In this document: piece after piece, positions 1 through 49,549 of the stretch
How positions within the stretch are numbered: the stretch's first letter is position 1
How the letters are laid out: the number at the start of each line of letters is the position of its first letter
Origin: an uncultured Planctomycetia bacterium
Lineage (GTDB): Bacteria; Omnitrophota; Gorgyraeia; Tantalellales; Tantalellaceae
NCBI GenBank assembly: GCA_964527765.1
Contig: CAZGQR010000010.1
Span: forward strand, 1,680 to 65,679
Reading direction: 5' to 3'
DNA length: 64,000 nt
Notes under the pieces: model-generated
Database searches by the model: none
The model's input: only the letters and a program-made list of their open reading frames with translations
Told to the model about the DNA's origin: nothing
Position numbers and translations under genes: made by a program

Positions 1-3000
1 AAAGAGAACGGCATAGAAGCGGCAAGGACCTGCGACCGGGATGAGAGGGACAGGTTGGAAGTGCCCGTATACGGCAATGTCTATCTTCCTTATTACATGG
101 AGAAAGGGAAGTTCGGCATCTCTGATGAGGGCCCGATGGGAAAAGTCCGCGCCGTGTATGAGCACGGGGGCAACGGCATAGCGCTGGCAAGGACTGAATA
201 CATGTACACCAGGGAAACCCCGCCCAGTTTTGAAATGCAGAGGGAAATATACCTCGGCATAGCCGATCTGGCCGATAAAAAAGTAACCTTGAGGACCTTT
301 GACAAGAGGCATGACAAGCAGTGCATCGCCCTTGAAGACGTGAAGACGGCATATGGCTTCGATTATTACAGGACCGAACCCGGCAGAAAAGCGCTGAAGA
401 CCCAACTGAAGGCGATGCTTGTCGCGTACGCGCAGTCAAAATACAGGAATATCCGCGTGATGTTCCCGCTGGTGAAGACCGTGGACGATATGAAGTTCAT
501 GGGCGAAATATTGGAAGAGGTTAAGGGCGAGATCTTATCTGTAAGCGGGGAATACGGGGATATAGATAAAACAACCCTCGACAGCATGCCCGTAGGGATC
601 ATGGTGGAGAGTAAAGAGGCCGTTGAGAATCTTGATGAACTTCTGGATAATAGATACGCAAAGGTAAGCTTTGTAAGCATCGGCACCAATGATCTTATCT
701 CCAGCGTTAAAGGTGTGCCGAGGACCGAACTGACGGACCATCATTTCGACAAGGAGATAATGGAGATAATAGAGAAAGTCGTGAAGGCGGCCAGTGGAAG
801 AGGGCTTTCCGTGGGCATTTGCGGAGATATTGCCCGGCTGGATAAGACGCTCCTGTTCAGTATCTACCTGTATCGTAAGTACGGAACTCTTCTTACCCTG
901 GGAGTCCTGCCCGACCTGGTACCAAGACTCAAGACGGCGGTGGAATTCACGAAGGCCAGGAACTGTTCCGAGATGTTCGCGGACTGGGAAGCCGAAAAAG
1001 TGACGGATTCCGATATCGATAATGCCGTGATGAGCAAGGTGACGGCCAGGATCGACAGGATCAAAAAACACAGATATATAAAAGAAGAAGATAAAAGGCG
1101 TGAATATGAAAATATCTTTAACGATATGGTAGGCCGGGCGATGGGAATATCTGCCGGGGTAAAGCTCGCCATTCCGGAACTCATGAAAGAGTTCATCCAT
1201 GAAGATTGGAGCATGGATACTTCTATTGAAGTTGAACACTATCCCAAGGATGTAGGAACCCCGGGCACTGGCAGCCAGGACTACAGAAAAACCTACTCCG
1301 AAGAAAGAGTGCGGTCGGATGTTTTTACCATCATTACCGAGGAAGGCGGAAGCCGGAGATTTGAAGAAAACAGGGAAGACGGCAGATACGTGAAATTGAC
1401 CCTGGATAACGGCGGTGAACTGCAGATAGACCAGATCGCCGGTCGGGCCACGAAACTGAGAGAGACCTTTACCAGGAGGTTCAACGAGATAAATGATAAT
1501 GAACAGTTTAAGTCCTTTATCAGTAATAATATGCGCTTACTGGACAAACTGCAGATATTCCTCATTGAGGCGGAACCCGGCTCGAGGGAAGCATCACACC
1601 CGCATCTCTTGACATGCGTCGGCGGAGAATGGCAGATCGCTCTCTCCGGAGCGCGCGGAGGGAACTACCAGGCAGTTTATCTGACCAGGGCTTTCTTCGA
1701 GGATATGTCTCTGGAAGATGTGCTTACGGTTCTTTGCCACCAGATCGCCAGAGCGGCCCTTCTTTATCAGTTCAAGGTGCGCCATGTCGCCGACAGGGGG
1801 CTTCCTGAAAAGGACCATCCCAAGGGAGAAGATGCTCCGGCGCAGAGAATTTGCAGTAAACTGGCCAGATGGCTCGATAGCATGATACTGAAAGAGGTCG
1901 AGCAGGTTGCGCTTTCTGAAGAACCGAAACCGGTCACGGAGACCGCGGAAGATATGATAATGATCGGTATTCCCTCAGGTGTGTATAATGCGCTGAGCGA
2001 GAAAGAGATAGAGCGCATTGAAGCGGTCCCGGGTGCGCGCATATCGATCCTGGAAAGCACGCAAGAGGACGGCATGCTTGAGGAGCTGGAAGAGGCAAGA
2101 AAGAAGGGGCCCGCGGTGGCATCCGCACTGATAGACGTCAATGCCGGGACGGAGGATCTATCGGAAATTATTGAGGAATTTGTTAAAGAAGTTAACGATA
2201 AGATCTTTGTTCTCACGCATCCCGAAGTAAAAGGACTTACGCCCCAGACCGTGAAGCAGATAGAGAACCTGCCGGAGCTTCTCAGGGATATTTCCGATAA
2301 TATCCGCTGGACCAGGAGCATAAAATCGCTTGATCTGGCGTCTCTGAGCGTGTATCAGATGAGGGTACAGAGGTCGTATGAGATATTCTATACCAGGCCC
2401 GCCGAGGAGACCAGAAGGGTGAAGTACCTGAAAGATGCCTTAAAGGTAAAAGATGAACATTATCTGCTCCATTATGCCGACGGCGAAGCAGTGCTGTCGG
2501 ATAACAGGGCGAGTATCCTTCCGTGCGGCTTGGAAATAAGGCGCAGGCGCGAAGTGATGGGCGTAACAGACGAAAATGACGCGCAGCATGACAGGTTCCT
2601 GGTCATGGCCCCGAAAGGCGTCGTTACGGATGAAGAGAAAGAAGACTTCAGGAAAAAGCTCATGGAGCGCTGGATGCTCGAGGGAGTGGTGAGCAGCGGT
2701 GATGTGGTAATACTTGACAGGAAAGATGAAGGATATACCACGAGTGAACTCTTCGAGATGGTCCGCTCCGTAAGGCCTGAATCGGTTACCGTCGCGAATA
2801 CCGGTTTCAGGTGCCTGGCAGGAGAGCTTGAGTATGATGATAGTGCCGCCGCAGAGAAAGTCCTGCAGGTAGAGCTTGACCCGAACGCGGCAAACAACAT
2901 AAACCAGTATGAGGTTTTTGTGAACCTCCTGCTCTCGAAAGATAAGGAGAGCCTGGTGAATATACCCGGCCTTACCAGTGACAAGGGAAGATTATTCATC

Positions 3001-3087: not shown

Positions 3088-3164
3088 GATAGGAAAGGAG
3101 AACAAGCAGATTTAAAGGGTGCTTAACCCAAAAGAGATACAAAACCTTCCTGTATCTCTTAAAA

Positions 3165-3214
3165 ATGTCCTCGCTTTGGGTCCTCCAAGCAGCCCGGGGC
3201 GAGGGCATTTTTTT
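3165..3214 (+). terminator. Putative intrinsic terminator after the truncated giant ORF
   Basis: Stem CCTCGC(3169-3174)/GCGAGG(3199-3204) followed by T-run 3208-3214. An upstream perfect 9-bp hairpin AGAGATACA/TGTATCTCT lies at 3133-3159. The loop is long, so this is only moderate. Confidence 0.4.
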
Positions 3215-3408
3215 AACTATCTCCTTTGTTTATAAGTAGTTATCTAATATTTTTCATATTTACCAATATTTAACCAGATTACCCAGATATTAAGAGTTTA
3301 AAAACCATAAAATTTATCCGATTTTCTTAAAAAAATAGCAGAAAATATACGATTTTAATAGAAAAAAAGCATGTATGTTAAGTTATAAAAAATTTAGAAA
3401 ACCCACAA

Positions 3409-3439
3409 TTGACATTCTCCCCATGTATGTTATTATAAT
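3409..3439 (+). promoter_or_regulatory. Sigma70-like promoter candidate for the 29.7-kb gene, inside a 489-nt strongly AT-rich leader
   Basis: TTGACA at 3409-3414 and TATAAT at 3434-3439 with a 19-nt spacer, which is slightly long. An 11-mer CATGTATGTTA is directly repeated at 3370-3380 and 3422-3432, flanking the -35. Confidence 0.4.
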
Positions 3440-3576
3440 TATACTTAATAAATAAAACAAAAAGCCAGACACTATTATGTTTTATAGACCCGAAGGCGGA
3501 TCAGCATAAAACAGGCAGGGATTTTTGTTATCCGGGCAATTTTAATTATTTAATAAGTAGCATATCTGAAGGACAT

Positions 3577-6500
3577 ATGAGTAGAAATAAAGCATTCATA
3601 AAAATTGTTTCGTTGGTCGTAGCAGGCATATTCCTCCATCAGCAGGTCCTGTGGGCTGCGGGCGACACGGCAGGTCTCACCAGGACCGTATCCGGTAAGC
3701 ATGAGATCCCGTATGCCGATACCCGCGAGGACGTCCGTATTTCCGATGGGCTTGCCCAGCTGGACGGCACATACACGGGTGAGGCAAAAGACGTTATTAT
3801 CAATATCCAGGACTGCCATTCCTCGCTTTCCGCGCAATATTCGATCGTGGATATCCTGAGAAACCTTCTTCAGGATTATGACATGAAGGTCATTGCCATT
3901 GAAGGGGGATCGGGATATCTGGACACTTCTTTGCTTAAAACTTTCCCGGACAAGAGCATCAAGAAAAAAACCGCTGCTTACCTGATGAAAGAAGGGAAGA
4001 TATCGGCCGGGGAATTCTTTTCCGTGACCACGGATGAGGATATTGCCCTGTACGGCGTTGAGGACAACGCCCTTTACCGGGAGAATCTTGAGATCTTCAG
4101 GGATATTCACGCAAGAAACCATGACAATATCGCCGTACTTGATGTTATTCTGGGCGATCTCAAGGATACCGAAAGCAGAGTATATTCGCAGGAATTGAAC
4201 CGCATGGTGTACAAATCCCGGCTTCACCGTGAAAGCAAGATAAGCTTTGATGTCTATTGGGATTTCCTGGAGAAGATATGCGACCGGACAGGTATTTCTA
4301 CCGACGAATATGCAAGCATCGGGAATTTCAAGGATTCGGTTCACCTGGAAAAGAGCATCGATTTCGGCGAAGCTACCTCGGAAAGAAAAAAACTGATCAA
4401 TGAATTGATGGAAAGCGCGACGAAGGAAGACATGGAAGAGGTGGTCACCAGATCGCTCTCCTTCGAAAAAGGCAAGATCGACCAGTCGGAGTATCACAGC
4501 TGGCTCCTGAGGTTTGCCTTGAGAAGAGGCATGGAAACGGGCGGGTTTCCGGAGCTTTGCAAATTCGCTGCTTATGCCGAGAGTTATCGAAAACTTGATA
4601 TCATAGGCCTGCAGAACGATATTAATGAGCTTGAGGGTAAAGTTCTCGAAAAACTTTTTTCTTCCCGGGAAGAGAGACAGCTCTACAGGCTCGTCAGGAT
4701 GACAGAGCTCCTGAAATCCCTGTTCGAGATAAAACTGACCGGCGAAGACATATCCTATCTGACGGCGAACATTGATGCCATAGACGCGGATGAGTATATC
4801 CGTTTTGCCGGAAGCGGGGAAGATGATACTTTGAATGACGCTGTTTGCCGCGCCCGCAAAAGCATGAAAGAGATCATTTTCGAGGCGAAAAGGGCCCTGA
4901 GGTTCTATGATCTGGCCGAGGAACGCAACCACGCGATGATAGCAAATACCGTTTCCGCGATGAGACGGGAAGATAAACACATTGCCGCCCTCATATCAGG
5001 CGGACATCATTCCGGAGGCCTTACGCGTATCATGAAAGAAAAAGGCCTCTCTTACCTTGTTCTCATGCCGAAGTTTTTCAATGACCGGTCCCGCCCCTAC
5101 GTGGCAGTCCTTACAAGAAAGTCAGGTCCCTACAGGAGGCTTGTTTCTTCGGGTGCTTACGACCTGGCCCTGGAAGCTTATTTTGACACGGGTGATCTCG
5201 GTAAGTTCAAAACAATGATGGCTTTTGCCGTCGGCCAGGCGGCCCTGGAGGGAAAAGATGTCCCGTCCGAGATAAAAAGCTGGATCGACTCTTACAGAAT
5301 GTGTTATGACAGTCTCTCGGCGGCAAGACGCGCGGCTATGGACTCGGAACCGGTAAGCCCCGAGGATCTGAAACAGCGCCTGCAACAGATCAGGGTGGTT
5401 GCTGAGGACGGACAGTCATGCAAGGTCCTGATAGGCGGCAGCGCTTACCGCGTGACCCCCGAGGGCGCAGAGGCAATATCCTCGGAAGAAACAGGTCCAG
5501 GCCTGCGCGGCGCGATGTTATCCGCTATCCAGCGTATATTTCTTCTGAAGGAAGGAATGGCAAAAAAGGCGTTGGGTCAAAAAAACGAGCCGCCCGATCT
5601 TACGGCCGGCCCTGATGCCATGAATCTGGGTTCGATCAATTCTTATGACAAGAAAACCCACAGGGACCTGCGCACCCGCCTGGAATACTCAAAGCAGGTT
5701 CAGATATGGGGCACGGGGATAAAAGATATAAGGTTCAGCAGGAAATACAGGTCAAAACTGATGAAAATAGATCCCAATCTGCCCAACGATCTTCACATCA
5801 TACTCATGGAGCATAAAAGAGCTCCCCCGGGTTCGGTAGAGGAAAGATTTCTTTTCTTTGATCCCAGGACAAAAAGATGGGTATTCTCCCATTCAGGCAC
5901 CAGGAGCCGGACCGGCAAGTTCGCCTATCTAACCAGGAAAGCCTTTGATGACCTGTATCAGACCGATAAGGGCAGGAAATTCCTGAAAAAATTAATGTGG
6001 AACGAGTACAGGCAGGCCACGGCAAAGCTGGAAGGCAGATGGACTGAAGATTATGACAAAGAGAAGACCTCTTCCCTGCGCGCTTTTGTAGAGGAATATC
6101 TTCGCGGTGTTGCACTTCAGACGGCAAAACCATCCGAACATCCTCAGGTGATCGTATCCGCTGATCCGAATAGATCCTTAAGAGAACATGTTTCAGAACT
6201 GCTTAACGTTGAGTCCGCAGAGATCCCGACCGGCAGGTTTCCGGACGGGGAGATAAAAGTGGTGGTAAAGGATCCGGAAGAGATAAAAGACAAAAACTGC
6301 ATGGTCGTGCAGGATATCAACAGCGACGAGGATTTCGTGAGTCTTCTGCTGATCATAGCGGGACTGAGGGACGCGGGAGCGAAAAAAGTCTCCTGCGTGC
6401 TGCCCGAGAAAATGCTGGAAAACAGTATTCTCCTGGATACGGTTTCATCGTTCGTGGATATTTACACCGCTGACAATTTCAAGTATCCTGCCTCATTCAC

Positions 6501-9500
6501 TCCGTACAGGCCGGAGAGGCCGGAGCCGGCCGGGCGCAGGAAGGCAAAAAAGAGCGAAAAAACCTATCTTCTTTTCACGAGAGACTACCGGAAACTCAAG
6601 CAGAAAGTTGCCGGCGGGCTGGTGAAAGCCGGGACCAAGCGCGACATGGAGATCAGCCACGTGAAGGCAAAAACGCTCGAAGAAGGCAGGGCCTCGGTCA
6701 GGATATCCCGGGATACGGAAGGCAAAAACTGCCTCCTGATACATAACACCAGGACCGCCAAGGGGCTGGTGGAATTGCTGATCATCCTGGAAAAGCTGAA
6801 AAGACAGGGCGCGGGCGAAATAGAGTGCCTTATATATTTCCTGGGATATGACCGCCAGCACGAGAATTATAACGTGAAAGAACACGGAGAGAACGCTTTC
6901 AGCGCGAACAGCGCCAAGTTTATCCTGGAGCTCATAAATCAGTACTGCGAGAGGATCTATACCGTAAACACCCATTTTATAAAAGAACCGAGCAGAGAAC
7001 CATACGGTTTTCCGGGGATCGAGGGCCTTGAGATAGTCAACTTGAGCGCTTTCGAGCATCTGGCCAGGTACTACAAGGAAAAGTACGGCCTTGAAAAGGC
7101 GGAACTTATCGGAGGCGATGACGGGGTTGCCGCTTTTCTCAAACCGGTAGCAGAAAAAATGGGCTGGGGGCTGCATTACCCCATAAAGAAAAGGATCTCC
7201 GTTGAAGAAGTCAGGTTCTCGATACCGGACGAATGGAAGCTTCCCGAGAACGGTGGCAAGGGAGCGTTGAAGGGGAAGGACGTGGTTCTTCTTGATGATG
7301 TGGTCGCCGGCGGCTCGACGCTGGTCAAGCTTGCCATCAAGCTCAAGAACGATTTCGGGGTGAAAAGAGTATTCGCGGGGACCGTGCACGGGAAACAGTC
7401 CAACAAGAAGCTGGCTTACTTTAGATCGCTGAAAGATGACCTGGGCCGCCCCGTGTTCGATGATATCATCGCGACGGATACGGTCGTATCCCCGACCAGC
7501 AAGGTCTCCATAGCCGAACTGATCGTTGAATTTCTGGAAGAAAGCCGCGGGATCGAGGAAACCGGACGCGGGGAAGACACCCGGCTGTTTTCTTTTCTGC
7601 CCCTGGCATTCCTGCCTTTTGCGCCGCTGGTACCGGGATTGGGCATCTTTACGCTCATGGCCACGGTCTTGCTTGCTGTTCTCTTTGCCGGAAAAAGCGA
7701 AAGAGTCGACATGTCCCCGGAAGATGCAGCATTACTCGGAGAGATAAGCAAAGAACTGGACAGATGCAGGGACAGCAGATTTGAGCGCACGCTGAACGTG
7801 CAAACTTACAACAAGGTAAAGTACCTTTCCTCCAAAGTCACGGGAGCAGATGACATTCTGCAAAGATTCGAGCGTTATTTTATCCTGACATCGCTTGTAT
7901 GCGCCCTGGATCCCGAAAAGATCCTTCTTACCCCTTTAAAGGAACACAGGGAATTTGTTGCCCTGTTCGTTATGGGATTCAACAAGGGAGAAAAAGAACC
8001 CTATTTTATTACCGCTCCTACCGATTTCAGCGCGGAAGTATGCCATACGGATCTCAAATGGGACAGGGAAATGAGCGTGCTCGGCCTTGTCCACTTCCCG
8101 AGGATGCCGATACCTGATTCCGCCGTTCCCGGAGATTACGTGGTTTTTTCGGGAGAGGAACTGCTGGGCAAAGTAAGCAGCACGAACAGTTATCTGCGCG
8201 GAACTCTGGCAAAAGGTGTTTTGTCGCGGGAAGGCTTCCTGCGGCTGGATCCCCCGGCGAATGAAGAAGAATTCCTGATGAGGAAGCTGGGCGATGCATA
8301 TTCGGATTCCGCACCGGAAAAAACCTATCATGAGCTTCTTATGGGAGAATATGTCAGCACGGTCGCTTTCCTGCTGGGGGAAAGCCAGGAGGAAGGCATC
8401 AATCCGGACAAGAAATTCTTTCTTTTTGATCCGGTAAAGGATATTTTCAGGGATAACGGGATACCTTTGCCCAAGGAGCTGACACTGGGCAGTTTCATGG
8501 AAGCGGTCAAGGGAAAGAAATTTAAATATATCAGGACCGAAGGCCTGCCCCGATATGCATTTTCACCCGGTAACATAAAAACCAAGATCAAAAGCAGGAG
8601 GGATGTTTGCGTTTCCGCCGCAAAGATGATAGCTGAGGAGATCAGAAAAAAGCCGGGTCTTGTGCTTGCCTTGCCGGCGGGCCGCACCCCCGGGGAACTT
8701 TATGAAGAACTGGTAAGGCTGCACGGGGAAGGATTGGACTTTTCGAACGTGAAGATCTTTAATCTGGATGAGTACGCGGGTCTGGGCAGTGAAGACAAGG
8801 GCAGTTTTTACCAGTACATGTGGGAAAAATTTTTGAGCAAGGTGAACGTCAGGGAAGAAAATGTAAGATTATTCAACGGGAAGGCCGAAGATCTTGAAGC
8901 CGAGTGCAAGTCCATGGAAGAGGATATTGAAAATGCCGGCGGTATTGATATCTGTCTTCTGGGCATCGGTGAGAACGGTCATATCGCCTTTAATGAGCCG
9001 GGGTCCAGTTTCTCGTCCGGGACAAGGGTCGTGGAGCTTCATCCTTCCACCGTGGAAAAAAGCAGATGCAAGGCGGGCAAAGCTCTTACCCTGGGCCTGG
9101 ACAACATAATGTCCAGCAGGAAGATAATACTGATGGCCTGGGGGACGTTCAAAACATCGGCGGTCAAAGGTGTATTTTATGGCCCCGCCTCCGAGAGCGT
9201 ACCGGCATCGGTATTAAAACAGCATCGGGATGTCACGTTTTTTCTGGACAAAGAAGCCGCTTTTTCAATAAAAAAAGAAGACCGGAAGAAGTTATCGGGC
9301 CTGAGCCCTCCAGCGGCCGATCAAACCGTTCCGTCCAAGGAGTCACCCGAAGACCGCGGAGACACTTTCCCTAAAAACATTTATTCTTTTCTTCCCCTCG
9401 CGCTTTTGCCGTTCGTGCCGGTTGTGCCGGGCCTGAGCATTTTTATGCTGGCCGGTATGATCCTGTTTGCCTTTTTCGCTTTCTCCGGAACGAGCCCGAA

Positions 9501-33264: not shown

Positions 33265-33361
33265 AATGATAATACGTAAGTCCAGTTCATTAAACAACTT
33301 ATGATAAAAAAACAGAACGCAGACGTAATGTTAAGGTATAAAATAGTTAGTATGTGTCCAG

Positions 33362-33390
33362 TTGACTTTTCCTATGGTGTGTTATATACT
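33362..33390 (+). promoter_or_regulatory. Sigma70-like promoter for the 8.4-kb gene
   Basis: TTGACT at 33362-33367, a 17-nt spacer, TATACT at 33385-33390. It sits in the 208-nt AT-rich spacer between the giant genes. AGGAGA lies 7 nt upstream of ATG 33473. Confidence 0.5.
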
Positions 33391-33472
33391 AATATCACTA
33401 GTGTAAATTTGTAAAAAGTAAGATTTTGAGTGCGGTAACGCAGCGTGCTCTATATCTGTAAAGGAGAAGATC

Positions 33473-36400
33473 ATGATAGGTGATGGATTCAAAAAATCCC
33501 TGTTCTTCAGGATAGTGAACCTTTTTCTGGTATTTACATTCTCGTTCTACAACATAAGTTTTGCCGTCACGGAGAAGAATGTCAAACCGTCCGATTTTGC
33601 GGATCCCCGGTCAGCTTTATCCGTCGATGATATAGGTATCGCTATCGACTGCGGTACCATAAAAAGTAAATATTCCGGTGATTCCGGCAGGACGGTCGTG
33701 CACATACAGGACGCTCACTGTAATTACGAAGCCCAATCCAATATAAACAGGATGCTGGCACAGCTGACGAAGGAATGCGGGATCAATATCATATCCGTAG
33801 AGGGTTCAGAGGGGATCATCGATACCGCGTGGTTCAGAGCTTTTCCTGATTCGGAGATACGCAAGGAAGTCGCTACTTATTTCATGAAAAAAGGCGAGAT
33901 CACCGGCGCCGAGTTCTTTTCGATCATTTCAGACTATAAAGGCACCATTTTTGGCGCTGAGACACGGGACTATTACGTGAAGAACCTGAAAGCCTTTACG
34001 GAAGTATATCCTTATAAGGATATGATGGAGAAATATTTTATCAACACGCGCACGATAGCCGATCGTTTAAAATCAATAGTTTATCCTCCCAAATTAAAGG
34101 AACTGGATTCCAGGATAAAAGCGTTTGATGACAAGGAACTGGAATTAAGTGATTACGCCGATTATCTTAACAGAACCGCCTCGAAGAACAGGGTCAACCT
34201 GAAGGATTACCCCAATTTCGAGAAGCTGATCCAGACACTTGAGTATGAGAAAAAGATCGATTTTGACATAGTGGACCAGGAGCGGAGCGAATACATCGAT
34301 GCCCTTGGCAAGAAGTTGTCCAAGGAGGAAATGACGGAACTGGTGACCCAGAGTATAAGGTTCAAGAAAGGCCATATAAAAGCGGTGGAATTCTATTTTT
34401 ATCTCAGGGAACTGGCGAAAGAACATGATATTCCCATGATGCAGGAATATCCGAACCTGTTCTATTACTATATCTACACAAAACTCTATGACGGCATAGA
34501 TAACGAGAGCCTGTTCAGGGAGATCGATACCGTCGAGGCACGGCTCAAGGAAAAACTTTTCGGGGACGAGGTCCAGGAGAAACTGGACAAATACGCCTCC
34601 ATGCTCGATATGTACGTGGACCTTGTGAACATCGAGCTGACGAACGAGGATTACGATCTTTTTAAAACCTACTCGAAGGAATTCTCGCTCGGGGATGTAT
34701 TGGCCTTTTTGGAAAAATTATGCGACAAATACAGCCTGAACTACGCCATTGACGGCGTGCCCGCGCAGATCAGCGAAAACCTCCCCAATATGGTCGATTT
34801 CTACGAAATAGCCATGAAGAGGGATAACGCCCTTATCGATAATACCCTCGATCAGATGGACAGGGAAGGAAAGAACAGGTGCGTGCTGATCGCCGGAGGC
34901 TTTCATACGAGGGGCATAAAGGATATCCTTGAGAAAAAAGGCGTTTCTTACGTAGTGGTCACCCCCAAGATAACCAAGGACGTCGAGACCCCTTATATAA
35001 AGGTATTGACCAACCAGAGGACCTCTCTGGAGGATATAATCACCGAAAGCGCCGTCATGCCCGGCCCGGAAATAACGACGTCGCGTGAAGCGATCGCCCG
35101 GCCCAAAGCCGATATGCTTTCTCCCTTGCTCCGCGTGGCCTACACTGTGCCGCTCTATCTCGAGAAGACCGAAGACCTGAAGACCCTTTCGGATACGATC
35201 GGACCGATTGAAGGCAGGACGCTTCTTGAAGTTACCGAGGAATCGTATCGGGAAATGGTCAGCGCCCTTGTAAGGGGATGGCTTGTGAAGGTAAAGCAGA
35301 ATGCGGCTCCGGAAGTATGGGCCAAAGCAGTGGAGAACTGGCCGCTGCTTCTCGGAGTGTACCTGAAGAAATACGAAGAAGCCGCGAAAGAAGAAGGCAT
35401 AGAACCGGCAAAGGGGCTCCGCGTCCCCGAAGTCGTATTGACCGAAGATGCCCTGGGTACCATAAGCGAGGAATTCAGGGGGATATTCAAGGGCGTGGTC
35501 ATAGCAGAAAGGACTACGCCGGGAACGGAAGCGTTGAGAACTTACCGGGGGTACGCGCCTCTTACGCCCGCTCAGCACAAGGGTGTCAATAAGGTGATCG
35601 AAGATCTGTTCAGCTCTGTTGAGAGCCCTCAAGAAACCGTTACACTTGAGATCGAAGGCGAGAAATACCCGATCAAGGTATTCGCGCTCGAAGGTTTCAA
35701 GGAGGCCATTGAAGCATACAATGAAAGTCCCGCTTATGGCGAAACAATACCTCTGGACATAGAAGTCCACCCGGGTCGCGGGCCCTCTCACAGACTGGAA
35801 GGCGCCAGCATGTACATGTCCCTGGACGGTTATAACGCCCTGACAAAAGAGCAAATAAAACGCTTGGCATTACATGAGCTTTATCATATACTTTTTGTAA
35901 GCCAGGGGGAACAGGCTGATGAAGAAGCCGTCATCGGGGCCATGAAAGGCGATGACCTGGATGATATTCGCAAGGAACTTGCCAAGGTTGAAAGAAAAAG
36001 AGCCGAGGAGAAGCTGAAAGTGGAAGAAGATAGAATAATCTCCGAAACACCCGGCGCACGGGAAGTGCTTGACAACATAGGATTTGCCACCAGCGCGGGA
36101 GAAAAGGTCAAGATAGCCGTTGTCGTTTCCGGCAGTGAAGTGGACCAGGAGAACTGGCAGGAAAGGCTTGACCGGACAAGCTCCAACGTTTTTAACCCGG
36201 ACGGAAGTTCGCTTGTCCTTTCACTGCAGGAGAAGATCGGCGACAAGACCAGAGAAGGTAATTTTCTCGGGACACTGCTTGCCTACCGGCATATCAAGAA
36301 AGCGGCCGATAAAGCCGGTATCCCGTATAAGGATTACGTTACCATGATAGGCATGCTTTTCGGACGAGGCGAAAGGATGTCACCCATTACGCAGGCGGAA

Positions 36401-39400
36401 GGCGACCGTAAACCCGCTATTTCCGTTACTCCGGCAACTATGGAGATCAAAGGCAGGGAAGGGTCTTTAGCGGCCATTGAAGAGGCGCTGCTGTATTTTA
36501 CCCCCGTCGTCCAGTATCTCGAAAAAAGAGGGTTCAGGGGCGTCCTGGACAAGTGGGGAGATGAGACAGAGATAGCGTCTATAGACTTAACGAGAGGGCC
36601 CGGGGAAGGCGAGTCTCTCGCACAGCAAGATGTCATGAAAGTCATTTCTGTTTTAAAACTAGATGATATTACCGATCCGCAGGCAGTAGAAAAAGATTGG
36701 GTCATTTTTGACGAAGATGGCAATATGCTGGCCCAGGTATCAAGGAATAAAAATGGAGCAGACGCCCTTCGCAAAGATTTAAAAGCCAAAATGGGCGAAT
36801 TCGGCATAGATCTGGATTATGTCGGCATAAGCCTTGGTCCAGTGGCTGTCTCTTATGATGTGCTGGACATAGCTTCGGAAGTTTTCGCGGAAGAGATAGA
36901 GAAGGAAGGCATTTATTTCGACTTTGATCCCTATTTTCTTATGGCACTTGCAATGGAGGATGATCCCGCCAAGTGGGATGCTGCCGTCAAGGCGGATAAG
37001 GGACTCCAGAAGCTTGTGGACATGGTTTCCGGCTTTTTCGGGAAAGTCCAGAATATAAAGAAAATATTTAGGGAAAAGCATGGAAGGGATCTCAACCTGA
37101 AGATATTGGATCTCGGCGGTAATGTGTACTGGGCCGATATAGGCCAGCACAGCGCCATGAGGGAGAAGTATCTCGCTCTTAACGATAAAGGAGCCCGCGG
37201 CGTTATCGCCAGGAAAGTCGCGAACATCCCGGGCGTAAGGGACGAGAACGGCAATATTATCGTCGATTCCGAGATAAGTCCCGACGTCAAAGTAAAGGAT
37301 TCCGTTATCGTGAACAGCAAGATCACCGGAAAAGGGACGATAACAGGAAGCGTTATCATGGATTCGGAGCTTGATAATGTCAAGATAACCGATGCTTTTG
37401 CCGTCAGGAGCGCGCGTCTGGGCAATACCGTGCTGGAGAAAAAATGCGGCATTTATAATTCGCTGGGCGTGAATGATCTTACTCTGAAGACCATAGAAAA
37501 GATCGAGGACGGAGAAACCAAGACTTACGGCATGCGGCACATATCTGTTTTGACGAGCAAGGGAAAGATCGATATGGAAGTCGCTGAAAATACGGATCTG
37601 AGAGATAAGAAAAACACATATAACGTGCCGATTTTCGGTAATGACATTTCCTTTGAGGACGCGTATAATGAGATGTTCGGCGTAAGTATGGAGGAACTTG
37701 AAAGAAGAAGGACGGAAGAGTTGGCCAAGCTAAACAGGATAAAGGAAAAGACCAAAAAGTTCGAGCAACTAAGTTTCGGCACCAGCGGCCTCAGGGACAC
37801 GGTTGAGAACATGACCGATATGGAGTGTTATATCAATGCGAGAGGCTTTATCAGGTCCCTCATTGACCGGGGCTTACTGGAAAAAAAGGATACCATCTCT
37901 ATAGCCGGCGATCTAAGATCAAGTACCCCCAGGATCATGAACGCGGTCGCGAAGGCGGTAGAGGATGAAGGAAAAACCGGTGGGTACGAGCTTAAGCTTG
38001 ATTTTTGCGGATTTATCCCGAGTCCGACCGCGGCCTTGAGAGGAAGGACAAAAGGCAGTATCAGCATCATGGTTACCGGCAGTCATATTCCTTTTAACAT
38101 GAACGGCGTTAAGTTCTATAAGAAGTCCGGTGAGGAAGTTCTTAAGGGGCTTGATGAGCGGACCATTCTTGAGGGTGTTGCCGGTGTGAGAAAAGAAGAA
38201 TACGCAAGATCATGGGAGGAATCCCTTTTTGACGAAAAAGGCATGTTCAAGTCCTCTCCAGAGTATGACCTTACGGCCAATCAAAGTGAAACGGAAGAGC
38301 AGTACGTTAATAGGTATCTGAATGCTTTTCCCAAGGATGCTCTTGCAGGCGTTGAGGTCGTTCTTTATGAACATTCGGCGGTCGGAAATGACATATTGAA
38401 AAAGATCTACGAACGCTTGGGCGCCAAGGTGATCGCTGTGGGAAAGAGCGAGAAGTTCATAGCTATAGATACGGAGAAGATCACTCCGACTTTGAAAGAT
38501 ATATTGGAAAAGTATTCCAATCCAGTGACGCTTTCAGAAGAGCTTACCAGCGAGAGGGAATGGACAATACAAATGATTACAAAAAGGCCTTTTGCAGTTA
38601 CCTTTACTGATGGCGACAAGGATAGGCCGGGCTTAGCAGATGAAAACGGAAACTTCCTTACAGGCGATAAACTGGGGCTTCTGGTCGCCAAACTGCTAAG
38701 GCCGACTTTTGCCGCTATTCCCGTAAGCAGCAACAAGGGCGTTGTCGAAGAGCTTAGGAAAATGGGAATAAAAGTGGTCCTGACAAAGATCGGATCGCCG
38801 CACGTTATTAAGGCCATGAACGATGAACTTGCCGTGAACCCGGATGCCAAAGCTTTGGGCTGGGAAGCCAACGGAGGATTTTTGCTCGGCAGCACGTTCG
38901 CTATCCCGGGAGGCGGGGAGCTGACAAGACTTGCCACCAGGGATGCCGTATTGCCCCTGGTTTCCGCGATATACCTGTCCAAAAACCCGGGCAAAATCCT
39001 GGGCAAAAAAGGCCCCATGAAGATGTCTGAACTTATCGACACGGAGATCCCCCATATTTACAATTACGCAAGCGTGTACGACAAGTTCCAAGAGCGTTTC
39101 AAGACGGACAGGGCTACCGCGCTCGCCACGATGAGGGCGATAGTGCCGGCACTGGCGCCGAAACTGAACGACGACAAGGTAGTCGCTATTGATTTTGATG
39201 AAGGAACAGCAGAAAGGCGCATAGAAAAGGAAATAAACGGTGAGAAGGTCCTCACCTTCGAGACCGAAAAAGTAAAGATCGACGACCTGTACAAAAAAGA
39301 TGATCCGGATCTGAAAGAATGGTATCGCGTCAAGGAAAAACTCGGGGAAGTGTTCACCTCCGAGGCGGGATTTGCCGAAGTAAAGTCCGTGAACATCCTT

Positions 39401-41875
39401 GACGGCGTGCAGGTGACTTTCAGAAACGGCGAGATCTCGCATCTCAGGCCTTCCGGGAATGCTCCCGAATTCAGGAACTATGCCATGGCCGCCGGGCAGG
39501 AACGCGCCGAAGAGATCGTAGCGGTTGGCGTGGAAGACATTATTCCTGTGTTGGCTGATGAAGTCTGGGCCGCCAGGGCACATAAGACCGTTGAGCGTGC
39601 GTTGACGCCCGGCATCTATACGGTCAGGACGATGCCGCCCAAGGATACACCGGCTGACAGGGTTCTCTATGCTATACTGCAGAGAAGGGAACCCGTGGGC
39701 GTTCTGCCCTATAAACAGCCCAAAGTCTGGGGTGTTAACGGTATCGGTGAATACTGGTACGGCGCCGAGATCGGCGAGAAAAGTTCGGTCGCCAAAGTGG
39801 GCGAAGATGCTGTCCCGATGGCTGAACTGATGCAGTACGCGCCGGAGGAAATACTGGGTGAGGCGGTAACGAGGAATTTCGGGGAAAGACTTCCCTTGGT
39901 GAAGATATTGACACCGAAAGACAGGCTATCACTGCAGTTCCATGATGCCAAGAACGAACTCTGGATAGTGACGGGTATTGACAAGTCCCTGGCGGGAAAA
40001 ACACCTTCGATCATAGTGGGCTTTAGCCAGAAAGCCGTCGATAAATACGGCAGGGACGTAACAAAGGAATACGGCAAGGCTCTTGAGAATTACGGCGAGA
40101 AACTTAACAAACTTATTGATCTGCTTGAGACGCGCGGTTATAAAGATCTGCTCGGGGAGACCAGGAATGTGGTCGTAGCGGCACAGCGTGTCATGGGGAA
40201 AGAACACGATATCAAGGAAGCGCTTGGGCAACTGTATAGCGCGCGCGGTCAGCTTGAAAGCTTTTATAACTACCGCGCAGTCAAAGTCGGAGACGTTGTT
40301 CCTGTGCCGGCGGGGACCTTACACGCTTTGACGGCAGGGATAGAGGTCGTGGAACCGCAGATAGCCGGCCCGACGCAGTCTCTCGAAGACGGAGCAACAT
40401 ACCCGGTGAGATATTATTTTCCCGGATACCAGAGACCCGGCGCGCAGAAGAAACTGGACATTGACAGGGTAGGCGAAATGAACCCCGCGGTCGTAAGAGA
40501 ATCCGAACCGGAGATCATCGCCGAAGGGGTAGAACGCCTTCCGGGCATGTTCGAAAGGAAGGGTCTGGAGGTACACAGGATAACGCTCGAGAAAGGGCGC
40601 GAGCTGAAGGTTCCTGAATCTACCAGTTTTCATACCCTGGTCACGGTGAAGGGTAAAGCCAGGGTTATTATCGGCGAGAAGACTTACGATATACCGAAGG
40701 CCTCTCCCGGCGGAGAGATGCTTATCATACCCGCGACTGTTGCAAGTTATAAGATCATTGCGGATGAACCGTCGCAGGTCATTGATACGTTCACGCCGGT
40801 CGCCAAGACCCAGGAGGTTCCCGTGGCTACGGGCGATAAAGTGCCGGGGACAGACGAACATGAATGGACAGAGGGAATCGTCTATGCGGACTATGAGAAT
40901 GATATGGTCCCCGATACCTACGTTCGGCTCGACATCATCGGTGTCAGGGAAATGCGGGATATGAAACAGGAGCACACGCTTATTGTGCAGAGCGGCAAAG
41001 TTAAGATTACCTCGCCCGTTGAAGAAATACCCCCGTTGGATGAGGGCCAGAGCTATACATTTAAAGCGGATTATCCCGATTATAGAATAGTCAGGTTAAG
41101 CGACCAGCCCGCCCGGGTCAAGATCGATTTCGAGAATACCAGAGCGGAAAATATAGTTTATGCGACTTATGATATGGTCAGGAAGCATATAGATACCATT
41201 AAAGCGGCGCAGATCGACCTGATCCTGCCCCAGGAGATGTTCGTTCCGGGCGGCAAGAATACGCCCGGGTCCGCCAAGTGGGAACAGGAGCAGCTGCAGA
41301 AATTCATAAGCGACAGGATAAGGATCACCACGTACAGCGCGCGCATGGGGCTTGAGGAAGCTGCTGGCAAATCGATCAATGAAGGAGCCGTGGGCATTCT
41401 GGTGGCGACCGAGTCTAACATTAGGGAAGCCGACAGAAATAACGCCAAGATTCAGGATTTTCTGTTCGGGAAAAAAGGAACAGTAAGAGTGCTTGCCATC
41501 CCGGATATCGACAAGGCGGAAGAGCTGGAAGGCAAGGGATGGTATTTCAACAGGGAAGTCGAGGGAACAGCTCTTCTTCTGGCAGCCGTTACCCCTGAAC
41601 AGATAAAGACGAAGGGCGAAGGGAACGCGGCGGATGACCTGCAGAAGCTTATGACACAGCTGACCGGACAGGTGATCCCGAGGGAATATCTGTATTACAT
41701 GCTTTCACATGACGAGATGGGCGACGCGAGAAACAAGCTTCCTGCCGCTTTTAAGGAAGATACTTTCGGCTGGCTGCTCTTTCTGGTGAACAATCTTCTT
41801 CTTAAGATGCCGATCAGGCCTTTTGACGCGACTGACCAGCTTTACCAGAGACGGAAGGTCATGTGGTCCGTCTAA
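33473..41875 (+). CDS. Giant fusion protein (2,800 aa). N-terminal anchor + conserved N-module; NDP-sugar pyrophosphorylase-like + LbH; alpha-D-phosphohexomutase (PMM/PGM); type-I phosphomannose isomerase (PMI); C-terminal region.
   Basis: Uninterrupted 8,403-nt ORF with a good SD. The domain motifs are listed in the sub-features below. Confidence 0.9.
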   Translation: MIGDGFKKSLFFRIVNLFLVFTFSFYNISFAVTEKNVKPSDFADPRSALSVDDIGIAIDCGTIKSKYSGDSGRTVVHIQDAHCNYEAQSNINRMLAQLTKECGINIISVEGSEGIIDTAWFRAFPDSEIRKEVATYFMKKGEITGAEFFSIISDYKGTIFGAETRDYYVKNLKAFTEVYPYKDMMEKYFINTRTIADRLKSIVYPPKLKELDSRIKAFDDKELELSDYADYLNRTASKNRVNLKDYPNFEKLIQTLEYEKKIDFDIVDQERSEYIDALGKKLSKEEMTELVTQSIRFKKGHIKAVEFYFYLRELAKEHDIPMMQEYPNLFYYYIYTKLYDGIDNESLFREIDTVEARLKEKLFGDEVQEKLDKYASMLDMYVDLVNIELTNEDYDLFKTYSKEFSLGDVLAFLEKLCDKYSLNYAIDGVPAQISENLPNMVDFYEIAMKRDNALIDNTLDQMDREGKNRCVLIAGGFHTRGIKDILEKKGVSYVVVTPKITKDVETPYIKVLTNQRTSLEDIITESAVMPGPEITTSREAIARPKADMLSPLLRVAYTVPLYLEKTEDLKTLSDTIGPIEGRTLLEVTEESYREMVSALVRGWLVKVKQNAAPEVWAKAVENWPLLLGVYLKKYEEAAKEEGIEPAKGLRVPEVVLTEDALGTISEEFRGIFKGVVIAERTTPGTEALRTYRGYAPLTPAQHKGVNKVIEDLFSSVESPQETVTLEIEGEKYPIKVFALEGFKEAIEAYNESPAYGETIPLDIEVHPGRGPSHRLEGASMYMSLDGYNALTKEQIKRLALHELYHILFVSQGEQADEEAVIGAMKGDDLDDIRKELAKVERKRAEEKLKVEEDRIISETPGAREVLDNIGFATSAGEKVKIAVVVSGSEVDQENWQERLDRTSSNVFNPDGSSLVLSLQEKIGDKTREGNFLGTLLAYRHIKKAADKAGIPYKDYVTMIGMLFGRGERMSPITQAEGDRKPAISVTPATMEIKGREGSLAAIEEALLYFTPVVQYLEKRGFRGVLDKWGDETEIASIDLTRGPGEGESLAQQDVMKVISVLKLDDITDPQAVEKDWVIFDEDGNMLAQVSRNKNGADALRKDLKAKMGEFGIDLDYVGISLGPVAVSYDVLDIASEVFAEEIEKEGIYFDFDPYFLMALAMEDDPAKWDAAVKADKGLQKLVDMVSGFFGKVQNIKKIFREKHGRDLNLKILDLGGNVYWADIGQHSAMREKYLALNDKGARGVIARKVANIPGVRDENGNIIVDSEISPDVKVKDSVIVNSKITGKGTITGSVIMDSELDNVKITDAFAVRSARLGNTVLEKKCGIYNSLGVNDLTLKTIEKIEDGETKTYGMRHISVLTSKGKIDMEVAENTDLRDKKNTYNVPIFGNDISFEDAYNEMFGVSMEELERRRTEELAKLNRIKEKTKKFEQLSFGTSGLRDTVENMTDMECYINARGFIRSLIDRGLLEKKDTISIAGDLRSSTPRIMNAVAKAVEDEGKTGGYELKLDFCGFIPSPTAALRGRTKGSISIMVTGSHIPFNMNGVKFYKKSGEEVLKGLDERTILEGVAGVRKEEYARSWEESLFDEKGMFKSSPEYDLTANQSETEEQYVNRYLNAFPKDALAGVEVVLYEHSAVGNDILKKIYERLGAKVIAVGKSEKFIAIDTEKITPTLKDILEKYSNPVTLSEELTSEREWTIQMITKRPFAVTFTDGDKDRPGLADENGNFLTGDKLGLLVAKLLRPTFAAIPVSSNKGVVEELRKMGIKVVLTKIGSPHVIKAMNDELAVNPDAKALGWEANGGFLLGSTFAIPGGGELTRLATRDAVLPLVSAIYLSKNPGKILGKKGPMKMSELIDTEIPHIYNYASVYDKFQERFKTDRATALATMRAIVPALAPKLNDDKVVAIDFDEGTAERRIEKEINGEKVLTFETEKVKIDDLYKKDDPDLKEWYRVKEKLGEVFTSEAGFAEVKSVNILDGVQVTFRNGEISHLRPSGNAPEFRNYAMAAGQERAEEIVAVGVEDIIPVLADEVWAARAHKTVERALTPGIYTVRTMPPKDTPADRVLYAILQRREPVGVLPYKQPKVWGVNGIGEYWYGAEIGEKSSVAKVGEDAVPMAELMQYAPEEILGEAVTRNFGERLPLVKILTPKDRLSLQFHDAKNELWIVTGIDKSLAGKTPSIIVGFSQKAVDKYGRDVTKEYGKALENYGEKLNKLIDLLETRGYKDLLGETRNVVVAAQRVMGKEHDIKEALGQLYSARGQLESFYNYRAVKVGDVVPVPAGTLHALTAGIEVVEPQIAGPTQSLEDGATYPVRYYFPGYQRPGAQKKLDIDRVGEMNPAVVRESEPEIIAEGVERLPGMFERKGLEVHRITLEKGRELKVPESTSFHTLVTVKGKARVIIGEKTYDIPKASPGGEMLIIPATVASYKIIADEPSQVIDTFTPVAKTQEVPVATGDKVPGTDEHEWTEGIVYADYENDMVPDTYVRLDIIGVREMRDMKQEHTLIVQSGKVKITSPVEEIPPLDEGQSYTFKADYPDYRIVRLSDQPARVKIDFENTRAENIVYATYDMVRKHIDTIKAAQIDLILPQEMFVPGGKNTPGSAKWEQEQLQKFISDRIRITTYSARMGLEEAAGKSINEGAVGILVATESNIREADRNNAKIQDFLFGKKGTVRVLAIPDIDKAEELEGKGWYFNREVEGTALLLAAVTPEQIKTKGEGNAADDLQKLMTQLTGQVIPREYLYYMLSHDEMGDARNKLPAAFKEDTFGWLLFLVNNLLLKMPIRPFDATDQLYQRRKVMWSV
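33680..34960 (+). other. Conserved N-terminal module (paralog of 3760..5070)
   Basis: VVHIQDAHCNYEAQ ... SVEGSEGIIDT ... FPDSEIRKEVATYFMKKGEITGAEFFS ... LIAGGFHTRGIKDILEKKGVSYVVVTPK. Confidence 0.7.
36100..37450 (+). other. NDP-sugar pyrophosphorylase-like module with C-terminal left-handed beta-helix
   Basis: KIAVVVSGSE ... MLFGRGERMSPITQAEGDRKPAISV is a UDPGP-like G-rich loop. The LbH hexads are IVDSEISPDVKVKDSVIVNSKITGKGTITGSVIMDSELDNVKITDAFAVRSARLGNTVL. Confidence 0.5.
37760..39500 (+). other. Alpha-D-phosphohexomutase (phosphomannomutase/phosphoglucomutase) module with all four family motifs
   Basis: FGTSGLRD (N-terminal GTSGLRG). TGSHIPFNMNGVKF is the active-site Ser loop T(A/G)SHNPxxxNG.K. 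FTDGDKDRPG is the metal loop DGDGDR. GWEANGGFLLG is the sugar-binding GEESGG loop. RPSGNAPEFRNY is the phosphate-binding R.SGTEP..R.Y loop. Confidence 0.85.
39700..40500 (+). other. Type-I phosphomannose isomerase (ManA-like cupin) module
   Basis: RLPLVKILTPKDRLSLQFHDAKNELW parallels ManA LPFLFKVL...LSIQVHP.K..E, which carries the Zn-ligand Gln/His/Glu. VVPVPAGTLHALTAG parallels the ManA C-terminal IPAGTPHAY His ligand. Confidence 0.6.
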
Positions 41876-41927
41876 CGATATGCCGCCGCGCGGTGCAACC
41901 GCGCTTTACGTAAGTATATAAAAATAA

Positions 41928-41959
41928 AAAGGGTAGGTGAATAGCCTGCCCTTTTCATT
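41928..41959 (+). terminator. Intrinsic terminator after the 8.4-kb gene
   Basis: Stem GGGTAGG(41931-41937) / CCTGCCC(41945-41951) with one G·U pair, a 7-nt loop, then TTTTCATT. An additional GC hairpin lies at 41887-41904. Confidence 0.5.
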
Positions 41960-43030: not shown

Positions 43031-43069
43031 AAACGCGATATGTAATACTGGAAGGAGCTTGCGCGGGTC

Positions 43070-43921: not shown

Positions 43922-43933
43922 AGAAAGGAAACC

Positions 43934-45574: not shown

Positions 45575-45595
45575 TAGCAAAAAGGAGGTCGTAAG

Positions 45596-46186: not shown

Positions 46187-46225
46187 GACCCGAAGCATGT
46201 AACCTAAAAAAAGAAAGGAAGAAGG

Positions 46226-49530: not shown

Positions 49531-49549
49531 CCGGAGAAGAGATCTCATA

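Follow-up and report, generated by a model that had tools for sequence, protein, structure and literature searches.

Conserved head and tail modules frame variable enzyme cores in a family of giant Omnitrophota proteins

Three consecutive genes, here called A, B and C, occupy the first part of a 64,000-nucleotide (nt) stretch of DNA (hereafter the window; GenBank assembly GCA_964527765.1, contig CAZGQR010000010.1, positions 1,680 to 65,679 of the forward strand), and we find that the ends of the proteins they encode define a modular family. Its members begin with a conserved N-terminal module, the head (about 520-630 amino acids (aa) across the family), and can end with a conserved C-terminal module, the tail (about 390-450 aa), around cores made of enzyme cassettes that differ from one protein to another. 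We have high confidence in these structural and family claims, and in everything sampled the family is confined to Candidatus Omnitrophota. Giant proteins of this phylum have been published (West-Roberts et al. 2023, 10.1101/2023.11.21.568195; Nielsen & Lui 2026, 10.64898/2026.06.07.730766; Seymour et al. 2023, PMC10066038), so that giant multi-enzyme proteins of Omnitrophota are already known, and the shared terminal modules are apparently new.

Results

Paralogous ends of genes A, B and C

The heads of B (aa 7-527) and C (aa 11-527) align at 28% identity (BLASTP E = 3.4e-59) and the tails of A (aa 623-1028) and B (aa 9487-9895) at 39% identity (E = 2.6e-78), which bears out the paralogy of these N- and C-termini proposed in a preliminary description of the window made from its letters alone. 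That description had put the N-terminal module at about 420 aa, which proved too short, as B and C share about 520 aa of head, and closer homologues as much as about 630 aa. The motifs it quoted are present in the head (IQDCH/IQDAH, IEGGSG/VEGSEG, FPD, GEFFS/AEFFS and GGHHSGG/GGFHTRG in B/C) and in the tail (YLVHYADG/YLLHYADG, NTGFRCL and QYEIFVNLL/QYEVFVNLL in A and B), save that GLEYD reads ELEYD in A. Beyond head and tail, BLAST with relaxed thresholds found no further region common to A, B and C, and no internal repeats were found in B or C by BLAST.

We then compared Smith-Waterman scores with those of 100 composition-preserving shuffles. The head pair scored 583 (shuffled 44 +/- 6, z 84) and the tail pair 715 (shuffled 43 +/- 8, z 86), with a control segment outside the modules reaching only z 1.1 in the same test; the similarity of both modules is therefore not compositional, a doubt that the preliminary description had itself raised. 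Low identity (only 28% and 39%) and the greater closeness of each window paralogue to orthologues in other genomes (49-61% identity) likewise led us to reject recent duplication or recombination between them. As the paralogues are this old, the arrays in which they stand appear to be long-lived rather than the product of recent duplications.

Of the three genes, only B carries both modules. C carries a head and, although a tail was searched for, none was found; the N-terminus of A lies outside the window. From its homologues we infer that A encodes part of a giant protein: one of them, P0047 (54% and 46% identity), abuts an ORF (open reading frame) of 6,582 aa. Two exact-match scans of metagenome contigs for an upstream extension of A gave no match, and the ENA and JGI contigs that also contain the locus of A extend it by no more than about 6 kb.

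Distribution and position of the modules

Metagenomic protein databases yielded 28 homologues of the head, none annotated, whose named sources are all Candidatus Omnitrophota or Omnitrophica; the three named source species belong to Candidatus Omnitrophota in the NCBI taxonomy. With one genome per GTDB species, 309 head-encoding stretches were confirmed by tblastn, several of these genomes holding 3-7 copies, and we examined the best 80 of the 309, which lie in 78 loci; these loci contain 82 occurrences. Most of the 78 loci are titled Omnitrophota and the remainder "uncultured Planctomycetia". The records with the latter title (TPA (third party annotation) binchicken metagenome-assembled genomes (MAGs); L003, L004, L005, L008, L009 and others) have heads 50-59% identical to those of Omnitrophota-labeled MAGs, and the title is probably a placeholder or a mis-assigned taxonomy.

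The head stands at the start of its ORF in 82 of 82 occurrences, no more than 66 residues from the first possible start codon except where a contig or locus edge cuts the ORF. Because 66 of these ORFs run off the analyzed DNA, many after more than 3,900 aa, closed lengths (361-3,445 aa) are available for the other 16. Minimal members such as P0009, a head followed by one HAD hydrolase in a protein of 871 aa, indicate that the head is not tied to one pathway or enzyme content.

For the tail, word-indexed homologue searches returned three fragments only, even with a 14-sequence profile, and an exhaustive HMMER search of 1.84 billion representative proteins gave 109 matches, 81 of them at E <= 1e-10. 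These matches lie nearly always at the extreme C-terminus, in proteins of 1,000-7,866 aa, and the tail ends exactly at the last residue of the protein in 83 of 90 non-redundant full copies. The consensus end is E-[VI]-L-[VI]-[KR]-A-COOH, with the final alanine in 85/87.

The two modules also co-occur as the termini of single proteins: 28 of the 55 tail-bearing representatives of at least 1,000 aa start with a head (E 1e-94 to 1e-241), and these 28 measure 1,863 to 7,834 aa. Among the tail-bearing representatives without a head, several are truncated at contig ends or interrupted by a probable frameshift. Since C and many other head-bearing proteins lack it, the tail is optional. At two loci (L084, 1-12649, and L085, 1-13009), genes for tail-bearing proteins of 2,882 and 3,002 aa lie directly against upstream ORFs of 6,582 and 9,408 aa, with the stop codon 4 nt before the start in one and a 4-nt overlap in the other; each pair is either one protein (about 9,500 and 12,400 aa) broken up by an assembly frameshift or a genuine pair of overlapping genes.

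Between the ends, the cores vary widely, also among close relatives, and include sugar-phosphate, nucleotide and radical SAM (S-adenosylmethionine) enzymes. Among complete head-to-tail proteins, P0034 contains a glutamate dehydrogenase, a cell-wall hydrolase and an M50 peptidase fragment, P0058 a phospholipid methyltransferase-like segment, and P0040 nothing that Pfam matches. In B, aa 641-6000 have no counterpart in any analyzed locus, including L001-L006 with heads 54-61% identical, and aa 7070-9440 together with the tail are collinear (47-59% identity) with ORFs in L005, L021, L022 and L067. The same block is collinear (40-47%) with a head-bearing ORF in L017, where it starts about 1,300 aa after the head. 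In L008 the phosphoenolpyruvate (PEP)-utilizing cassette of A appears again, about 1,250 aa after a head; it is also found beside a tail in L084, and in L015. An orthologue of C (60% identity over aa 1-815) lies behind a tail-bearing gene in L083, and in a close relative, JBDRIH01, the tail-bearing gene before the C orthologue has some of the cassettes of B, with a GatZ/KbaZ-like one replacing others. Protein lengths span 871 aa to more than 9,400 aa in the family and reach 9,895 aa in B. With strictly terminal ends that are conserved family-wide, and a mosaic middle whose cassettes differ between members and recur elsewhere, the modular arrangement put forward in the preliminary description, in which conserved terminal domains frame interchangeable cores, therefore holds.

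Fold and active-site pattern of the head

The AlphaFold2 model of the head (21 sequences; predicted local distance difference test (pLDDT) 80.4, predicted template modeling score (pTM) 0.70) has an alpha/beta core with strands at about aa 60-79, 105-108, 157-161, 469-475 and 492-498, interrupted by an all-helical insertion of about 300 aa (aa 164-464) and followed by a flexible loop with a near-invariant R-P-Y and a small helical/beta domain. A parallel beta-sheet with flanking helices is the core fold of the TIKI/TraB/ChaN/erythromycin-esterase superfamily, and the modeled head displays it. Members of this superfamily have in common the parallel-sheet core and a site of two histidines and two glutamates (2His/2Glu; PMC6254334), formed in RRSP by E3900, H3902, E3930 and H4030, with H85 and E113 as site residues in Bcr135 (PMC6254334).

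A corresponding set of residues is nearly invariant in the head. Asp79 and His81 are present in 122/122 non-identical copies, Glu109 in 122/122 and His478 in 121/122, and in the model D79/H81, E109 and H478 lie at the C-terminal ends of core strands, the last at the end of the strand formed by aa 469-475. The spacing of 28 residues from His81 to Glu109 equals that of Bcr135 (H85/E113) and RRSP (H3902/E3930; PMC6254334), and D79-x-H81 matches E3900-x-H3902 of RRSP, a correspondence by motif and strand position and not by residue-level superposition; the first acid is Asp in the head and Glu in RRSP.

Profile methods gave a different picture. Pfam searches with the 21 alignment members returned only one TIKI-family match, at E 0.11 (PF04187, ChaN); searches of the PDB with a single sequence, the full profile and a core-only profile without the helical insertion matched no member of the superfamily; and core-only head sequences had no match in NCBIfam and Pfam. 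The head thus shows no detectable profile similarity to TraB (PF01963), ChaN (PF04187), Ere (PF05139) or the superfamily members in the PDB. The resemblance to TraB/Tiki/GumN that the preliminary description had guessed at is in this way borne out by fold and active-site pattern and by none of the sequence-profile methods.

Because of that fold and pattern, we regard homology to the TIKI superfamily as likely, and catalytic competence as likely too, with somewhat less assurance; as modeled, the head forms a highly divergent branch of the superfamily that carries an insertion. Like its other members (Tiki, RRSP, EreB/EreC, Bcr135/136, ChaN, HopBA1), the head has a parallel-sheet core, an acid-x-His motif, a Glu 28 residues later and a second His; many of these proteins are extracytoplasmic, with a signal peptide or a lipoprotein anchor. 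The head differs from them in the lack of detectable profile similarity, in Asp for Glu, in the insertion, and in its constant fusion to the N-terminus of very large multi-enzyme proteins.

The segment after the last core strand (aa 506-530 of B, window 5092-5166) carries a near-invariant R-P-Y-[VI]-x-[VI]-L-T-x-[KR]-[KR]-x-x-Y in the heads, at pLDDT below 50. It may act as a flexible lid over the active site or as a site of processing.

Structure of the tail

The AlphaFold2 model of the tail (pLDDT 72) has two well-predicted alpha/beta lobes (query aa 70-168 and 245-440) and a terminal helix, so that the tail, as modeled, consists of two Rossmann-like lobes and a final helix. No match was found by phmmer against the PDB, by Pfam on each alignment member, by the profile against the PDB or by NCBIfam, and Foldseek returned nothing significant when the model was searched against the PDB.

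We also considered the second lobe as a HAD phosphatase and rejected this identity because the HAD motifs are missing. Strand 1, YLVHYADG, has a single conserved Asp (D256) and no DxD, and the ILDRKDE stretch that might stand for motif IV varies (ILESS in L006, VLPAK in L031). HAD phosphatases of the MDP-1 type have a DxD nucleophile (motif I, hhhhDxDx[TV], closing strand 1) and an acidic motif IV; the second lobe lacks the former, does not conserve the latter, and has no Pfam or NCBIfam match.

Predicted leader and membrane segments

Leader and transmembrane calls were made with Kyte-Doolittle and -3/-1 heuristics. By these, B and C are predicted to start with a Sec-type signal peptide. Over the 122 non-identical copies, the leader has a basic n-region, an 11-residue hydrophobic stretch and a c-region F-h-x-Q-[QD]-I-[VG]-W-A↓[QA]-G, with V/G/T at -3 and A at -1, which fits the -3/-1 rule of signal peptidase I. 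Its conservation is far above that of usual signal peptides, with F19, Q22 and W26 unusually conserved.

From the leader to residue 1337, B has no transmembrane segment, and C has no internal one. Seven predicted hairpins lie within aa 1337-6426 of B, with 0-1 Lys/Arg in their loops and 1-5 in their flanks. Three of them (Table 1) share the motif [LI][FY]SF[LM]xLA[FL]LPFxx[LVI]VPGL and a second hydrophobic helix, and two of the three stand directly after an identified enzyme cassette. A hidden Markov model (HMM) of this motif found no copy in any other analyzed protein or locus; being unique to B among these, the motif is not a family-wide punctuation mark. It resembles PGF/PEP-CTERM-style sorting signals but is internal in B, and may be re-entrant rather than membrane-spanning.

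Enzyme cassettes and table of features

The enzyme cassettes of A, B and C are listed with the other features in Table 1. B additionally has tetratricopeptide repeats (TPR) and a LigT/2H phosphoesterase match below the Pfam cut-off; its DUF4922 match is also below the cut-off and its HD match weak, and the mannose-6-phosphate isomerase match of C is likewise below the cut-off. The block before the tail of B (window 24043-31248, aa ~6823-9224) brings together 2H-phosphoesterase-like, ARMT1-like, DUF4922, viperin-like radical SAM and HD domains, and several other Omnitrophota genomes keep its part after about aa 7070 as a unit. Placed beside nucleotide-handling domains, the viperin-like enzyme might make a modified nucleotide.

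Table 1 Features of genes A, B and C and their spacers, with positions in the window
Feature	Position	Strand	Details
Gene A	1..3087	+	ORF in frame 1, open at window edge, at least 1,028 aa; presumably the tail part of a larger protein
PEP-utilizing enzyme, PEP-binding domain of A	145..846	+	aa 49-282; Pfam PF02896, E 5.7e-31
Tail module of A	1867..3087	+	aa 623-1028 and stop codon; ends ...SEVLVRA-COOH
Promoter-like site, A-B spacer	3409..3436	+	sigma-70-like: TTGACA, 16 nt, TG-TATTAT; 11/12 matches; consensus match only, count not above shuffles
Gene B	3577..33264	+	ORF, 9,895 aa: head, mosaic enzyme core with seven predicted transmembrane hairpins, tail
Predicted Sec-type signal peptide of B	3577..3657	+	aa 1-27; MSRNKAFIK, 11-residue hydrophobic stretch, HQQVLWA↓AG; heuristic call
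Head module of B	3577..5466	+	aa 1-630; TIKI/ChaN/Ere-like alpha/beta core split by helical insertion (model)
Asp79-x-His81 (IQDCH)	3811..3819	+	first catalytic-type motif of B head
Glu109 (EG motif)	3901..3903	+	28 residues after His81
His478 (GGxH)	5008..5010	+	second catalytic-type histidine
Ribose-phosphate pyrophosphokinase-like, B	6148..7413	+	aa 858-1279; PF13793 (E 1.3e-22), PF00156; PDB phosphoribosyl pyrophosphate (PRPP) synthetases
Proline-rich transmembrane hairpin of B, copy 1	7585..7701	+	aa 1337-1375; LFSFLPLAFLPFAPLVPGLGIFTLMATVLLAVLFAGKSE
Glucosamine-6-phosphate deaminase (NagB)-like, B	8602..9231	+	aa 1676-1885; PF01182, E 3.2e-22; PDB 2bkv, E 1.7e-50
Transmembrane hairpin of B, copy 2	9379..9495	+	aa 1935-1973
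Transmembrane hairpin of B, copy 3	14140..14256	+	aa 3522-3560
ARMT1-like phosphatase, DUF4922, viperin-like radical SAM and HD of B	28279..31248	+	aa 8235-9224; Pfam, PDB viperin
Tail module of B	32035..33264	+	aa 9487-9895 and stop codon; ends ...KEILVKA-COOH
Promoter-like site, B-C spacer	33362..33390	+	sigma-70-like, 10/12 matches; consensus match only
Gene C	33473..41875	+	ORF, 2,800 aa: predicted signal peptide and head, then phosphomannomutase, weak mannose-6-phosphate isomerase match
Head module of C	33473..35053	+	aa 1-527; IQDAH, VEGSEG and GGFHTRG intact
Phosphoglucomutase/phosphomannomutase of C	37772..38983	+	aa 1434-1837; PF02878, PF02879, PF02880; PDB 4hjh, E 5.7e-55
Terminator-like hairpin after C	41927..41955	+	12-bp stem; only + strand one found; consensus match only

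Gene arrays and surroundings

Members of the family tend to stand in arrays. Upstream sequence of 3 kb or more is visible for 53 head-bearing genes. For 34 of them, an ORF of at least 900 aa on the same strand ends no more than 1.5 kb ahead, and for 12 the preceding ORF bears a tail. In contexts found through the tail, and hence without bias to heads, a head-bearing gene lies 217-320 nt downstream in two of three informative cases. Within the window, both junctions (A-B and B-C) place a head-bearing gene after a tail-bearing one, with spacers of 489 nt and 208 nt.

In one head-bearing subfamily, an AcrB/AcrD/AcrF-type RND transporter is encoded directly upstream on the same strand (Pfam E ~1e-200; L033 6028-9276, L050 5737-9003, L063 6236-9625, L077 2054-5248 and L073 6707-9619). 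This neighbor could reflect conserved orthologous synteny or a functional link to export.

Directly downstream of C, the window holds a mannan-type sugar uptake cluster (42122-51418) with two ABC sugar permeases, two GH113 mannanases, one of them with an F5/8 type C domain, two CBM27-like binding proteins, a ROK protein and a solute-binding protein. Secretion loci upstream and carbohydrate import downstream have been described for Omnitrophota giant genes (10.1101/2023.11.21.568195), with a second report of secretion and sugar-import loci near such genes (10.64898/2026.06.07.730766), and the cluster after C matches the published pattern (10.1101/2023.11.21.568195). The coding strand of the giant genes is purine-rich over window 1-42000 (GC skew +0.07 to +0.21, AT skew +0.08 to +0.22), and the + strand carries every gene listed between 1 and 51 kb.

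Elsewhere the window is ordinary bacterial chromosome, without a 16S gene and with genes for an M48 peptidase, a GT2 glycosyltransferase, YdjC, SmpB, transfer-messenger RNA (tmRNA), a MerR-family regulator and type I restriction HsdR. The smpB gene is followed 1 nt later by the tmRNA gene (55402-56244; Rfam 156.8 bits), for which ARAGORN gives the tag peptide VPAYAGASPLVSALGY, unusual in not ending in the usual ...LAA, and a tRNA-Leu(CAG) gene lies just upstream of the pair on the minus strand (55172-55258). G+C content drops from about 0.49 to 0.38-0.44 immediately past the tmRNA gene (window 56001-64000), and this low-G+C region holds the MerR-family gene, an MgsA_C-like gene and HsdR (60367-63153). 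It may be an island integrated at the tmRNA gene; a search of the window for an att-like repeat of the tmRNA end gave none.

Discussion

Relation to published giant proteins

A, B and C resemble the Omnitrophota giant multi-enzyme proteins in phylum and in their many enzyme Pfams (PGM/PMM, radical SAM, HD, HAD, TPR, PPDK-type). B and C share with them a predicted signal peptide, B the scattered transmembrane helices, and the window the sugar-import genes downstream. With many enzyme Pfams and none dominating, they fit the "multi-enzyme metabolic cluster" class of Nielsen & Lui (10.64898/2026.06.07.730766), and the predicted leaders of B and C and the seven hairpins of B agree with the signal peptide and transmembrane segments of class 1 of these authors. 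At 9,895 aa (B) and 2,800 aa (C), they remain below the length cut-offs used in these surveys (10,000 aa in Nielsen & Lui, 30,000 aa in West-Roberts et al.). They also differ from the Archaeovorin/dockerin-type giants of West-Roberts et al. (2023), which combine HEAT with GT5/GT1, or dockerin with TSP3, with C39/S8 or SecA-like domains: Pfam (E <= 0.01) found none of these domains in A, B or C.

Giant Omnitrophota ORFs have been called poorly conserved, with N-terminal regions lacking identifiable domains (PMC10066038; 10.1101/2023.11.21.568195). In the published papers on these proteins we found no mention of a shared head or tail, neither preprint mentions TIKI or TraB, and a full-text literature search for Omnitrophota together with TraB, GumN or Tiki did not find the shared modules.

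A proposed role for head and tail

Our best composite explanation, which we favor with modest confidence, is that members of the family carry an exported-type leader, an active hydrolase head that matures the giants, a recognized tail, and cores that are exchanged. The signal peptide would bring the nascent chain to, or through, the inner membrane via the Sec machinery. Characterized relatives with the TIKI fold are peptidases (Tiki, RRSP, probably TraB/PrgY) or esterases (Ere), and the head would be an active hydrolase of one of these two kinds, acting at the membrane or in the periplasm to mature or process its own giant protein or sister proteins. The tail would act as a terminal domain particular to the family, with a free C-terminus that is recognized for assembly, export or quality control, and selection on function would keep both modules as the cores are exchanged by cassette gain and loss. 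A role of the head in maturation or processing, which we advance tentatively, is the most economical one because the head is the one constant catalytic element before otherwise unrelated cargo, and it fits the open question of West-Roberts et al. (10.1101/2023.11.21.568195) as to whether giant proteins are cut into pieces.

Several observations weigh against this explanation. No evidence of cleavage exists, and no search for a recurrent cleavage motif was made. The tail is without a recognizable active site or known homologue, and it is absent from many head-bearing proteins, including C. Non-catalytic members of the fold of the head exist, namely ChaN and PMT. By the positive-inside rule, the Lys/Arg residues in the hairpin flanks place the large domains of B in the cytoplasm, and export conflicts with the PRPP synthetase, radical SAM and phosphomannomutase cores, which need ATP, SAM and reductant that neither the periplasm nor the cell exterior provides. 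This topology puzzle, of cytoplasmic-type enzymes predicted outside the cell, was met in both published surveys (10.1101/2023.11.21.568195; 10.64898/2026.06.07.730766), and the finding of a conserved Sec leader before ATP-, SAM- and reductant-dependent cores sharpens the conflict and does not solve it.

Alternative explanations

The head and tail could instead serve export or targeting alone, being recognized by a dedicated secretion route, for which type II/IV-like systems, described beside giant genes of Omnitrophota, are candidates, that carries enzyme cargo to the cell surface or into prey, with the TIKI-like domain being no processing enzyme. The Sec-type leader on every member would suit such a route, as would the secretion loci upstream and sugar-import loci downstream in the literature (10.1101/2023.11.21.568195; 10.64898/2026.06.07.730766) and the sugar-import cluster directly downstream in the window. 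The closest architectural parallel would be the MARTX toxins, multi-thousand-residue proteins in which conserved ends likewise surround variable, recombining enzyme cassettes (PMC6254334), and which are proteolytically processed and include an effector, RRSP, with the TIKI fold. MARTX toxins, however, have glycine-rich repeat arms, type I secretion without an N-terminal signal peptide, and an internal cysteine protease domain, and Pfam finds no RTX repeats, C39 or cysteine-protease domain in A, B and C; because these defining features are not present, the analogy is one of architecture only. The invariance of Asp-x-His, Glu and His across some 122 copies argues for catalysis over recognition alone, many members have no tail to be recognized, and no secretion genes are visible in the window, whose upstream side is cut off. 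We consider export or targeting alone unlikely.

A second alternative starts from gene order: the tail of one protein might bind the head of the next-encoded one, so that the giants assemble into an ordered super-chain or membrane-bound enzyme array. Both window junctions have the tail-bearing gene before the head-bearing one, as do L005, L007 (twice), L021, L022, L024, L031, L067 (twice) and L078, with short spacers of about 180-490 nt, and the head-bearing gene comes next in two of three tail-found contexts; a strictly conserved free C-terminus would, moreover, suit a binding epitope. Such adjacency would be automatic, however, if family members simply cluster in arrays, and only 12/53 head-bearing genes follow a tail-bearing gene, with many head-bearing proteins, again including C, having no tail to offer. 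The arrangement recalls the docking domains of polyketide synthases and nonribosomal peptide synthetases (PKS/NRPS), in which the C-terminal element of one giant and the N-terminal element of the following one are encoded directly one after the other, but those are non-catalytic and measure 20-100 aa, whereas the modules here measure 400-600 aa, far more than known docking domains, and the head looks catalytic and exported. Docking would also leave the invariant catalytic-type residues of the head unexplained, and no head-tail fusion (Rosetta stone) was found among the 82 head occurrences, making this alternative, in our view, quite improbable.

It is very improbable that the head is a non-catalytic, ligand-binding or anchoring TIKI-fold domain, comparable to ChaN or PMT C1/C2, with the tail being the last ordinary cassette. 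ChaN binds haem and is a non-catalytic member of the fold. PMT, too, keeps the TIKI fold without the catalytic motif (PMC6254334), but in the head the full constellation of two histidines and two acids is invariant; an ordinary-cassette tail is at odds with the missing HAD DxD and the non-conserved motif-IV-like Asp, and would not be expected to keep a strict terminal position and fixed last six residues. Finally, the suspicion that the similarity is compositional, or the remnant of a recent tandem duplication without common function, as adjacent genes on a coding strand that is purine-rich throughout might suggest, is refuted by the shuffle controls, by the age of the paralogues relative to their closer orthologues elsewhere, and by invariant residues common to hundreds of homologues.

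Implications

A more far-reaching version of the maturation proposal is that the family constitutes a phylum-specific line of exported polyproteins, in which a TIKI-type leader hydrolase, the first part to be synthesized and to be exported, cuts the chain that follows it, or tail-docked sister chains, into enzymes at the membrane or in prey. We regard this version as doubtful at present; if it were true, giant Omnitrophota genes would encode bacterial polyproteins with a self-contained maturation system, and this would settle whether giant proteins work intact or as fragments.

Head and tail are the first sequence handles that define a family among the giant Omnitrophota proteins. They allow true gene starts and ends to be recognized in fragmented assemblies, and make cassette gain and loss traceable. 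The head further makes the questions of export and processing concrete, as a small expressible domain with four obvious targets for mutagenesis, and the C-terminus of the tail is an obvious bait for partners.

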